A DNA stretch of 64,000 nt from Pocillopora damicornis. Lineage: Eukaryota. The stretch lies in NCBI RefSeq assembly GCF_003704095.1, contig NW_020843987.1:124001-188000 (forward strand), in the 5' to 3' direction. The notes beneath the pieces are model-generated. The model saw only the letters and a list, made by a program, of their open reading frames with translations, did not search any database and was not told the origin of the DNA. Positions 34,102-38,700 of the stretch are shown here, piece after piece (within the stretch, counting starts at the first letter, position 1; every line of letters begins with the position of its first letter). Position numbers and translations under genes: made by a program.

Positions 34102-35371
34102 TCGTTAAATTAATGCGCAGAAGAAAATAAGTTTCAGAAATGATGTAATATATAAAGGTTTGCAAAGTAACTATAACGTCAGGAAAGAAAAGATCGCCTT
34201 ACAGAAACGAACAAAATTATCCTTTGCTTTAAAAAAAAAAAGCTTTTAGCTGCATTTTTCTTAAGAAAAAAAATGGCAAAAATATGTTTAACAAGACAAA
34301 TTGCAATGAAACATTCGAAGATAAAAACTTTGGGCGTAGAGAAGATTAACTTTAGATAGACACTTGATTTGTGAACAAGGTTAAAACAGATGCTAAATTA
34401 TAGTTGGCGACCAATGACGAAATTTTTGTCCTAAAAAAGAAAAAACTAGACAGATTTCTGAAGCTATCAACTCTGATAGCTTTTTTTACTGTAAAACGAA
34501 ACAACTATATACGGCTCCCCTTGTGGAAGATTTTGTGGATTAACAGAAGTTTCATGGTCTAGCAAACTTTTAGCAATGGGAAGATCTTAAAATTCTTATA
34601 AAACACTTCGATAGCGTGCTGGAATAGCACTTAAAGTAGTAATTTGGAGGTCAATATCAATGGTATGTTGCACATAGAATGTCTAGTGTTACCTGGTATC
34701 AACTTGAGCAGCTTTATGTTTCCAAGTGTCACTTGAGATTTCTCCGCAGCTGGTGAAGAAAATTTGTCTCATTAGTAGAGACTGAGGGATGAGTAATTGC
34801 ATTTACATCCGAAGATGTCTGTTCCATGTGGTATAATTTGTTTTTGTATTCCAAAAAGAAAGTTCTGTAATTCTGCATTCTGTCATGCACATGCACTCGT
34901 TAAAATAGACAGAAAGTCTGCTCTATGATTTATTTCACTTTTAAATTACGATCTACTATTTCAGATCTTTGTCTACAGCCGGTAGATTAAAAAAAAAAAC
35001 CTAAAAAAAGCGAGTAGAAAATTCATACCTCGAATTATCATCATTTCTACTGTTGAGAAAATTAGTTAGATTCTAGTGACAAACGATTTAGCTCTTAAAC
35101 AGATCCATCAACATCCATTAGAGGCAGTTCACCGGTTGACTTACGTTTTCATTGAAATATCTTCCGTTTTACAGTGACACGTCCTCTTACAAAATTGGTC
35201 ATTTTCGAGCTCCGAGAGCCCTTGTAAGACTCATATCTTTCATGGTAATAATATACACTTAATGCGTGGCCCCGGGGGAAACAGTTAGTTTTGTTTCCCG
35301 AGGGTCCTGATGTTTCCTGTGACGAAGTTGAGGGAAACATCCAGACTCGAGGGAAAACAAAACTAACTAGT

Positions 35372-35742
35372 AATGATTTTAGATATATGAAATTCATACA
35401 TTTGCACTGCGGTGAAGAAACGAATTTAAGAGCTCCTCGCAGCTAAGAACACTACTGAACCAGTAGTTGAAAATAGGACCTGAAAAAAATTTATTCATTC
35501 GTTTCTTCACCGCAGTGCAAATATATGAATTTCATATATCTAAAATCATTATTCATCACTTGGATGGTTTATTTGGACCCAACATATTGACCAGCTCCCA
35601 GTTGGCTTGTTAGCTCAGTTGGTATAGCGCTGCACCGGTATCGCAGAGGTCATGGGTTCAAATCCCGTACGGGCCTGAATTTTTCTCAGGTCCAATTTTC
35701 AACTACTAGTTTTGTAGTGTTCTTAGCTGCGAGGATCTCTTG
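35372..35742 (+). mobile_element. 371-bp tRNA-like-containing retroelement with 13-bp target site duplication
   Basis: AAAACTAACTAGT at 35359-35371 and 35743-35755; internal cloverleaf at 35604-35676; two interleaved inverted-repeat pairs. Confidence 0.85.
35604..35676 (+). pseudogene. tRNA-like cloverleaf (nominal anticodon GGT, Thr), not a canonical tRNA gene
   Basis: Acceptor GGCTTGT/ACGGGCC, D arm TAGCTCAGTTGGTATAGC, anticodon stem CTGCA/CGCAG with one mismatch, loop CCGGTAT (C33 rather than U33), T arm ATGGG-TTCAAAT-CCCGT. It lies inside a repeat. Confidence 0.75.
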
Positions 35743-38700
35743 AAAACTAACTAGTTTCCCGAGGGACCGTACATTAAGAGCTTTGTTATATATTTAGACT
35801 TTCCCTTAAACAGTCATATGGCAAAAACGTGCTGTTGTATTTGGCGCACGGGAAACAACTGCGCAATTGTATCCCGGTTGAGATGCATTTGAATTTGATC
35901 AGGGGCACGTGACCAAGAATCAATCAAAATGCTCGTTTTATTGAGTGCTAGTCTCGGTAGATAACAATGAGTGTTATATGTACAAGTTATTTGCTCATAA
36001 AATAGTTTAGATCTACCCTCCTTGGTTTGAAACAGAGACAAGAGACATCTCGTAAAGTTGGGGCACTCGACGCGCTCGGAAAGAAGGAGCACCTCACGAT
36101 TTTTTATTTATCTGGTTTTGTTTTGAATCGCGCCACGGCCAGCGTCGAAAAAGAGGGACTACCCGTAATCTAGACCAGGTTTTCAAGAATCACGACTTTT
36201 GACAGACCTCATCCATAGCTGCACTCCTGTTTCAAGCAGTAAATCTGTAGAACAAAGCGCGAGTGAAAAAACGAGAAAGATCTGGGTCGGCTAGGCAATC
36301 CGACCCAGACCTCCATGAACGCCTGTAGTTCACAGAGGTTCCGCTGCCTCAAGTGATAATTAAAGTGACAAATCACGTACATGCGAAAGTCAATCAAACA
36401 TCGTCATTCTTCTAATCCATCCTTTGACCCACGATGTTATCTTTCGAGTTAATGCACCTCCATTCCACCCTGGAACCTGATCATCAAATGTTTGAGTTAA
36501 AACTACTTCACGTATACCCTGTAAGTCATTTATTAAGGAGAAGCTTTCCACTCCTCGTCTTCATCAAGCGAATTGAAAATAGAAAATTCATTTCGTGCAA
36601 TTTCTCGCATACGGAAACAACTGTTGTTGTCTTACACTGCGTGAACAAAAACAAAACGGAATTTAAAGAGCAAACAAACGTCAAATGGATATTCTTTTAT
36701 CTCATCTTGATTGCAATGATAGGAAGAAGTGAAATTCAGTGAGTCTCGCAAAGCGGTCTTCTTTTAATATTTGGCATAGTCCTTCAACTGTATACTTGGA
36801 ATCTCAATTTAATCACACACAACCCTTGAGTTGCTTAGGTTGAAGAAACTTTGCATTTCACTTGAGCTTTGATATGGTAATTTTTTTTTCGAGTGAACAC
36901 GTCTGTGATTTAAAACGACGAACGCAAATTGTAATCCTACGATGTACGTGTTCATTCTACGTCGATATTTAAAAAAAATACTCGGCCTATTCGTGATAGC
37001 ATTTTGATTTGGCATGAGGTTGTTCACTGATTGTGATAAAAACTTGTTTATTTTGGATAAGATACAAAGTTGTGGAGTGAAAATCTTCTTCGAGGTTAAC
37101 CCCTAGCGGGAATACCTGCACACACGGAACCAAGTGTGACGAGGTTAAATGGAAGGGGAACAACTTGAGCGTGGGTGGTGAAAACTCGCCTCAAACGATT
37201 ATGCATCGTCACAACTACAATACATTTCGAAAGAAACTTTCATTTCCACAAGTTTCTTGCTGTTGTGCTTAAAACTCGATGGTCTACCAACTGGTTTAAA
37301 CATTTTATGGCCTCTTTTGAAATAACAATTGATTTTTTTATCTCTGTATTCCGTTACGTGCCTTTCCATTTTCATTTAGGGGGAGTTTTTTTCTCACGAG
37401 TGGGAGAATTTTTCGTCATAATCGCGTTTTTTAGGCGCCGGAAAATGTAACAAGCTTCTAAATTCATCCATTCGTTTAGAGGACCGTTTACATGATTTAA
37501 CAGCTTATTTCAGATACTTTATTTTAGGCCTAATCGACATCTACTGATTGTACAATAAGCTCTGACGTAGCATTTTCCTTTCTGTAGGAACAATTTCACA
37601 CTTTACTAGATTAGAGACTTTTATATGAAGACATTTTGTCGCTTCTGGCTTATTACTTTTATATTGTTTTTGTTTAATATAAAATGCAAAATAGGTATAT
37701 TTCATGTTACAAGAAGACGTTGTAAACACAAGTTTTAATCGCAAATCGATTGAATTCGCTGCTGGGCTACCCCGGTAACCTTTCTATTCAAAGTATGGTT
37801 GAGATATTTAACATGTGGCTTGGCTTTCAAATTGATCTGGGATTAGAATTTTCAATGAAATTTAAACAAAGGGTTGGTAGCCGCTACCAAATGATTTTAT
37901 TAAAAGGTTATGAGGTCAGAGCTTGCTTCCCAAGTAGCCATTTATCGCCTGAAAGATTTCTCGCGAGAAACAAAGGTTTTTGTACTCTACCGCTTCAATT
38001 CAGAGAAATAAAGTACGAGAACCGTTATTATTTTTATGATGTGTTCATAAATATTCAGGACGAAAACGCTAACACGCGAGAAGATTTGTATTATGCGTAA
38101 GTTTATATATATCTCTTAAGAAAAAAGGGATTTCTGTCACAGGAGATGACAGTACACTTCAAAGGAAAGATTTTATCGAAAGCCTCTGAAAGATAACCTC
38201 TCAGGAATAATGCGCTTTAAAGTGTTGCGTGTCGGAAAACAAAATACGTCAAGCAAATTAAAACATCGAGTGAAACCATGGACAAAAATAGAATTTACAA
38301 TGACTAAAGATTGTTAGTGATGCGCGAATCACAATTTTTGCATCACGCAAGGCCATTTTCAATAGCGGGATCTTTTCCTTCAATTTACCGATTAACAGCC
38401 ACAAAGTGGCGACTGCAATTTAACAATTAAATCAGTTAATCTAATTTAATCTGAGTTTTGGAGTTAATTAAAGTAGCCAAGTTTTAGCATTCGTTCCCGA
38501 ATACGCTCGTGAACCATAGGTCATCGTAGGACCTTTTTAAAAACTTTTAAAAGATTAGGAATCAAAAGTTGAATTACTTTTCAGGATATCGAAGCCACGA
38601 AAACGTAGGCGGGCAGTTTGCGTGCGTTATCTGTCAAATAACAACATTAATTCCAGATTTTTCCTTTAATCTTTTCTTTCTATTTAAAAAAGATTTCATC

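Follow-up and report, generated by a model that had tools for sequence, protein, structure and literature searches.

A high-copy repeat of Pocillopora damicornis with an internal tRNA mimic and the insertion signature of Penelope-like elements

We analysed a 64,000-nucleotide stretch of the Pocillopora damicornis genome (assembly GCF_003704095.1, contig NW_020843987.1, forward-strand positions 124,001 to 188,000; hereafter the window, from whose first letter all coordinates are counted) that contains a permuted repeat built around a tRNA-like fold. The insert measures 371 bp and lies between 13-bp direct repeats (AAAACTAACTAGT; left copy 35359–35371, right copy 35743–35755), so that the whole occupies 35359–35755; features are on the plus strand unless stated otherwise. 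It interrupts an older palindromic host repeat that is not part of the element, the left part of which spans 35262–35371 and which resumes after 35755 (about 35756–35860). This host repeat has 86 candidates in the genome, of which 40 were scored and 19 fetched, and all 19 other copies compared carry the target as a single site, confirming that the target-site duplication is genuine.

Within the insert, an inverted arm on the minus strand (35372–35491; unit positions 182–302) carries block B, a junction and the tail of block A, and has its 3′ end at 35372, which corresponds to end site 2 as defined below. Five nucleotides of unstranded filler (35492–35496) mark the inversion junction, and a forward arm (35497–35742) then makes one lap of a 247-nt unit and finishes at end site 1 (35742). 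The forward arm opens with A′ (35497–35550), the tail of about 50 nt between the two end sites, which holds an AT-rich hairpin and a CGCAG strand that pairs with B′. It is followed by the spacer and leader (35571–35592), which are complementary to the tRNA mimic's variable loop and T arm and are predicted to close an intron of unit length, and by the mimic itself (35604–35676). The anticodon loop of the mimic (35635–35641) consists of a self-complementary CCGG at tRNA positions 32–35 plus three bases and is predicted to form a cross-unit helix with 3-nt bulges. A conserved trailer hairpin (35673–35692) surrounds a T run that resembles a terminator of RNA polymerase III (Pol III), seven residues long in the family majority and interrupted here by one C, and B′ (35678–35741) supplies a covarying hairpin (35702–35718) and a CTGCG strand upstream of end site 1. 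A and A′ are identical at 53 of 54 positions, B and B′ at 58 of 64. The order of A, B, A′, tRNA fold and B′, with its coordinates and counts and the 13-bp duplication, had been set out in a preliminary description of the window, and all of it was reproduced. The leader at 35594–35612 also resembles a second copy of the D arm and A box; pairing between it and the D arm is predicted. Two rhodopsin-family receptor genes, likely the product of a local gene duplication, flank the element as long intron-free open frames (32746–34101 and 39044–40666).

The insert belongs to a high-copy, non-coding family. A first look with the forward arm returned 1,583 candidates in the genome, which also has 157 exact matches to a family motif of 25 nt and 223 to one of 24 nt. 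Because copies connect B′ to A through two bases, the unit is a cycle of 247 nt: A at 1–54, spacer at 55–107, tRNA mimic at 108–180 and B at 182–247. The B′A′ junction, which the preliminary description had ascribed to a tandem or circular template, is present in many genomic copies. We obtained 183 distinct inserts from 188 loci; removal of 17 beside runs of N, 7 at locus edges and 1 duplicate left 158 inserts with 230 arms. Metagenome contigs contain related families whose parts follow the same order. Direct copies on contig C846 (L003 and L008) were considered as terminal repeats of a longer element and rejected, as they share their flanks and represent a local duplication.

The 3′ ends of the 230 arms concentrate at two sites about 50 nt apart, with 95 at site 1 (around 248–260), 91 at site 2 (around 295–311) and 44 elsewhere. 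Tabulated by arrangement, as the preliminary description had outlined, the 158 inserts comprise 60 divergent inverted pairs and 40 single arms that are longer than one unit. Where both ends of an inverted insert fall at a site (n = 37), 36 inserts combine site 1 with site 2, one has site 2 twice and none has site 1 twice; the window insert is a site-1/site-2 pair. Exact flanking repeats of at least 9 nt, mostly 12–13 bp, were found at 61 of the 158 inserts compared with 0.4% of shuffled pairings. There is no poly(A), A-rich or simple-repeat 3′ tail, the ends passing directly into the flank, and the 5′ ends of the 186 arms with a defined 3′ end are scattered round the whole unit.

These features are those of Penelope-like elements (PLEs), in which reverse transcription begins at two internal RNA sites whose spacing equals the genomic tail, and whose protein cuts and extends both target strands in vitro (PMC11167929). 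PLE inserts include partial tandems, inverted arms and a one-ended tail (PMC8557442). A positive control for the two-end signature is found within the window itself, where the insert at 49624–49899 is an inverted 3′ fragment derived from a GIY-YIG PLE family of the autonomous type that has a hammerhead-like core. Among 27 matches to this family, 12 end at 104–113 and 14 at 156–167, at sites about 55–60 nt apart. The core is recognisable as a hammerhead from its motif; Rfam gave no match there. For this insert, the inverted-plus-tail layout given in the preliminary description holds; its 11-bp duplication matches at 10 of the 11 positions. Because the two coupled ends, the inverted arms and the duplications match the PLE pattern, and the hammerhead-family control has two end sites as well, insertion of the 247-nt family by a PLE reverse transcriptase/GIY-YIG protein is well supported by pattern, and we regard it as very likely. 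The protein would, with high probability, nick both target strands, reverse transcription starting at site 1 on one and at site 2 on the other, and the pairing of sites in 36 of 37 inserts serves as a genomic test of priming by a PLE dimer on both strands. End sites, arms and duplications across the family thus agree with the earlier proposal of a non-autonomous element with Penelope-type insertion and a tandem or circular template, distinct from an ordinary short interspersed nuclear element (SINE).

Two results weigh against this assignment. Among 70 of 135 GIY-YIG loci, which sample the clades with an N-terminal endonuclease poorly, no autonomous partner emerged, and a B+A profile matched only a separate old copy at L231. 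The comparison of 3′ ends envisaged in the preliminary description yielded the shared two-end pattern; the likeness to the tail of the hammerhead PLE family is suggestive by eye and not significant (z at most 1.7). No reverse transcriptase motif of note adjoins the family copies.

The hammerhead-bearing family has four fragments in the window (49624–49899, 45895–45991, 62492–62642 and 15721–15751) and full 3′ ends at L238, L219 and L235. At least six further GIY-YIG families are present (L209, L213, L215, L210, L229, L212, L227 and L278), several with hammerhead-like cores and one ending in (TA)n. Two inserts of the 247-nt family (L070, 1638–1734; L073, 1334–1429) sit at end site 1 of the hammerhead family and duplicate it, a landing site that possibly hints at the partner endonuclease. 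In all, 4 of the 158 inserts lie within 40 nt of this site, an observation made post hoc that we do not count as evidence.

The laps and inverted arms of the 247-nt family share derived letters, which favours a circular template or copying from the same molecule: 31% of such letters are held in common by overlapping laps and 34% by inverted arms, compared with 12–13% between inserts of one subfamily. Beyond one unit, stops become twice as frequent per nucleotide, rising from 0.0075 (45 stops in 5,963 nt) to 0.0151 (41 in 2,716 nt; p = 0.001), as expected from an enzyme that meets its own product on a circle. On the other side of the balance, the longest of the 230 arms is 456 nt and none attains two units, so that only partial tandems are seen (the assembly may collapse arrays), and just 7 arms contain two full mimics. 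The rise in stop rate could also come from tandems that collapsed in the assembly. The stretch is present in 22 of 24 listed runs; the four RNA runs used here, from four studies, consist of assembled contigs, in which ends, strand and circles do not show and whose B-to-A junction is equally explained by tandem DNA copies.

Unit positions 92–194, which include the tRNA mimic, are nearly invariant over five subfamily majorities: 1 of 73 tRNA columns varies as against 33–40% in A, spacer and B, a comparison that the search motif biases at positions 156–180. Among 29 copies drawn from several families, pairing in the acceptor stem stands at 98.5%, with double-sided changes in two pairs, and the B hairpin has four pairs altered in this way. 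The helices formed by the leader with the variable loop and by the trailer give no covariation evidence because, at 91–97% pairing, they show no double changes. The conserved A and B boxes are intact, and the loop CCGGTAT is intact in 63 of 77 arms chosen without using the loop, CpG decay being the commonest variant. From these patterns the fold appears to be under selection, which counts in favour of the mechanism proposed below.

ARAGORN reads the fold at 35604–35676 as Thr, ggt, and Rfam scores it at 51.5 bits (RF00005); family copies labelled Thr-GGT in this way inflate tRNA counts in these genomes. A functional tRNA is expected to carry U33. The mimic has C33 together with an A31–C39 mismatch (unpaired in 29 of 29 copies), and for these reasons is not a working tRNA. 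Its closest genuine counterpart is tRNA-Thr(AGT) (L408, score 52 of 73), the best among 30 fetched loci that included no tRNA-Ile. The Thr(AGT) loop begins with CTAG at the place of CCGG in the mimic; each of these tetranucleotides is self-complementary, and six other real loops that we checked are non-palindromic. Six tRNA-Lys(TTT) genes are clustered in both orientations at G000:C1122:406637-413859 (L399-L402, L412, L424).

We propose that the mimic would allow unit-length RNA to be released by the host enzymes TSEN and RtcB. In an RNA of tandem units, the 5′ half of the mimic in unit 1 would pair with the 3′ half in unit 2 to form a single pre-tRNA whose intron is one unit, and the anticodon–intron pair would join C32 to G35 of the following unit. 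Symmetric TSEN cuts near 37/38 would then free exactly one unit with 5′-OH and cyclic-phosphate ends, which RtcB would join into an RNA circle of about 247 nt, the template for reverse transcription. The Penelope protein would copy round this circle from its two coupled start sites. When a dimer (from +1 of the first tRNA to +73 of the second) was folded without constraints, a single cloverleaf was predicted from the 5′ half of unit 1 and the 3′ half of unit 2. In five of five majorities the predicted swapped acceptor reached 0.96, the swapped anticodon stem 0.98 and the CCGG helix 1.0, the loop helix lying between 3-nt bulges and the spacer, leader and trailer concealing the internal halves. 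Among natural tandems, L054 is predicted to adopt the swapped fold (z −4.4), as are L124 and L361. Animal TSEN recognises the tRNA body, a C–G anticodon–intron pair and a 3-nt bulge, and RtcB turns inserted introns into circles (PMC6614914, PMC10485636). In retrozymes, hammerheads likewise leave 5′-OH and cyclic-phosphate ends, which RtcB ligates (PMC7229834). The genome contains matches to TSEN domains and to RtcB, and covariation between the spacer and T arm is apparent by eye.

A number of observations speak against the TSEN/RtcB step. The control for the folding is weak, as the swapped stem was also obtained with 19 of 40 permuted loops, and two natural tandems (L103 and L131) folded only partly in this manner. 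The predicted helix is 6 bp long and GC-rich (A31 to U36), rather than the 4-bp motif, and is accompanied by the A31–C39 mismatch; a more tightly paired helix reduces splicing (PMC6614914). Cognate spacer/T-arm duplexes were clearly best in only one of four groups, and the 5′ ends of family arms do not pile up at tRNA position 38. The T run right after the mimic should halt Pol III before a dimer is made, and the model leaves the source of tandem RNA unexplained. Sampling is a further consideration: the loci are non-random (38 chosen by best match, 150 by exact motif), and the metagenome copies were chosen by their loop motif and are therefore uninformative on its conservation. Taking these points together, we place the release of a unit circle by TSEN and RtcB, with the mimic replacing a hammerhead, at or slightly below even chances. 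The explanation as a whole, a PLE-copied repeat combined with such a circle, seems to us evenly balanced. The wider idea of the preliminary description, that a tRNA fold could do the work of the hammerhead in retrozymes, thus survives as a prediction with TSEN as the enzyme.

The mimic could instead be nothing but a Pol III promoter in a PLE-mobilised repeat, making the family a PLE counterpart of Helenus and Cassandra, with a palindrome inherited from tRNA-Thr(AGT) and tandem arms produced by read-through of tandem source loci or by template jumps. Intact, conserved A and B boxes are what a promoter would require, tRNA-derived promoters within terminal repeats are known in long terminal repeat (LTR) elements (PMC10886601), and four of the seven arms with two mimics begin at 102–108, near tRNA +1. 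However, 5′ ends overall are not enriched at +1, 52 of 93 arms with the B motif reach position 100 or further upstream, and the T run comes after the mimic. A promoter has no need of covariation in the acceptor stem, and the loop differs from that of Thr(AGT) on both sides while still being palindromic; we consider this reading rather unlikely. Under the cleavage route suggested in the preliminary description, RNase P or RNase Z would cut multimeric transcripts into monomers at the mimic. The intact acceptor and T stems and the covariation of the acceptor would suit such enzymes, and the inverted arm of the window copy does start at unit position 182. This stop at the tRNA 3′ end is a property of the window copy that does not extend to the breakpoints of the family: 8 ends fall at tRNA +1 where 6.5 are expected (p = 0.32) and 7 after +73 where 8.6 are expected (p = 0.77), and mild peaks lie instead at hairpins (21–26, about 135 and 186–191). 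As there is no excess after +73 in the family, RNase Z loses the one piece of evidence advanced for it. The preliminary description had named two patterns that would tell against its proposal, and breakpoints unrelated to the tRNA ends were in part what we found; a majority of copies starting at the tRNA head and ending in a tail like that of a long interspersed nuclear element (LINE) was not seen. In the predicted fold the internal acceptor end is concealed in the trailer hairpin, and a linear monomer from +1 cannot template arms that extend upstream of +1. RNase P and RNase Z also leave 5′-phosphate and 3′-OH ends, which are not substrates of RtcB. The cut-site test weakens this route without settling it, since any cut site would be masked in a circular template, and we judge it improbable.

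Without any cleavage, the palindromic loop could serve as a signal for kissing-loop dimerisation, delivering two RNAs to a dimeric PLE protein and so giving rise to site-1/site-2 inverted inserts. A 6-bp self-complementary helix is predicted, 36 of the 37 inverted inserts pair both sites, and the PLE protein is predicted to be dimeric (PMC11167929); but inverted, tailed inserts are likewise made by the hammerhead PLE family, which has no tRNA, and neither the arms beyond one unit nor the acceptor covariation would be explained, so we give the idea little credence. An ordinary LINE-dependent tRNA SINE would likewise have a tRNA-derived part with A and B boxes and long target duplications, yet only 8 of 186 arms begin within 4 nt of tRNA +1, the ends enter the flank without an A-rich or simple-repeat tail, and the coupling of two end sites and the divergence of the inverted arms also count against such an element. 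We regard this last possibility as very improbable.

The window contains a decayed copy (7091–7322) of a second tRNA-mimic family, which has a 261-nt unit, 904 first-look candidates in the genome and the same two-end, inverted and tandem layout. Its 3′ ends cluster near 255 and 300, and inverted and tandem copies occur. The majority loop, G-CGCG-GAA, places a CGCG palindrome within 8 nt, three bases before the stem (13 of 20 loops scored). Two points count against treating this family as a second instance of the mechanism. Its dimer is predicted not to fold as that of the first family does (helix 0.02; 4.2 kcal/mol above the minimum), and, because its leader resembles that of the first family, it may share ancestry with it and not be independent. 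That the genome houses a class of ribozyme-free, PLE-mobilised elements posing as intron-containing pre-tRNAs, with at least two families, is a tentative proposal that we hold to be somewhat short of an even chance.

The 247-nt family behaves like an animal non-LTR retrozyme or a non-autonomous PLE. It is neither a retrozyme, as no hammerhead was found, nor a SINE: Rfam reported no ribozyme in the window copy or in a natural tandem and no hammerhead core was seen by eye, although the sensitivity of Rfam is limited, the minimal hammerhead at 49.7 kb having escaped it too. With animal non-LTR retrozymes (PMC7229834; bioRxiv 10.64898/2026.07.22.740005) it shares non-coding coral units of about 220–250 nt and long duplications, and in both cases dependence on PLEs and circular intermediates made by RtcB are proposed. 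Retrozymes reach 62-mers, whereas no array above two units was seen for the family here, which has a tRNA mimic in place of the hammerhead and circles that are predicted. PLEs and their non-autonomous derivatives (MRC1; PMC8557442, PMC11167929) have in common with it partial tandems, an inverted 5′-truncated arm and a two-site tail; it differs from PLEs (PMC8557442, PMC11167929) in having no open reading frame, a tail of about 50 nt rather than 30–40, an internal tRNA mimic and no similarity to the autonomous families sampled. Helenus, Ajax and Cassandra (TRIMp3; PMC10886601) are likewise non-autonomous and carry a segment derived from a small RNA inside the repeat rather than at a SINE-like head. 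They are LTR elements with a primer-binding site, a polypurine tract and short (4–5-bp) duplications, in contrast to the PLE-type ends and covarying acceptor stem seen here (PMC10886601). The family shows no two-LTR layout, and its duplications are 12–13 bp as against 4–5 bp in TRIMp3; no search was made for a primer-binding site or polypurine tract. In tRNA intronic circular RNAs (tricRNAs; PMC6614914) and permuted tRNA genes (PMC3978253), a motif resembling a bulge-helix-bulge at 37/38 leads by the TSEN/RtcB route to a circle, as predicted here. Those RNAs come from host tRNA genes, whereas here an entire mobile unit would serve as the intron, with the mimic re-formed at the junction of the circle (PMC6614914, PMC3978253).

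SINEs derived from tRNAs (SINE2) have a tRNA segment with A and B boxes at their head, high copy number and a LINE-like tail. The family shares the A/B-box segment and the high copy number, but its mimic is internal and rarely at the start, and it has no LINE-like tail. Our literature search returned no description of a tRNA-mimic, PLE-dependent element or of a TSEN-processed transposon; it did not extend to Repbase, Dfam or supplements, which may list the family (for example as SINE2). The excerpts of bioRxiv 10.1101/2025.03.15.643469 and PMC13247085 contain nothing on such an element.

If the proposed mechanism is true, the host tRNA-splicing pathway has been co-opted by a mobile element as a step of its own replication, circles of the tricRNA type gain a role, and retrozyme-like elements can use a host enzyme in place of a ribozyme. 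Leaving the TSEN step aside, a tRNA-bearing family mobilised by PLEs is an analogue of SINEs for a third class of retroelement. Elsewhere in the window, Rfam matches SNORD61, a C/D-box snoRNA, at 14479–14553 with a score of 46.4 against a gathering score of 43.

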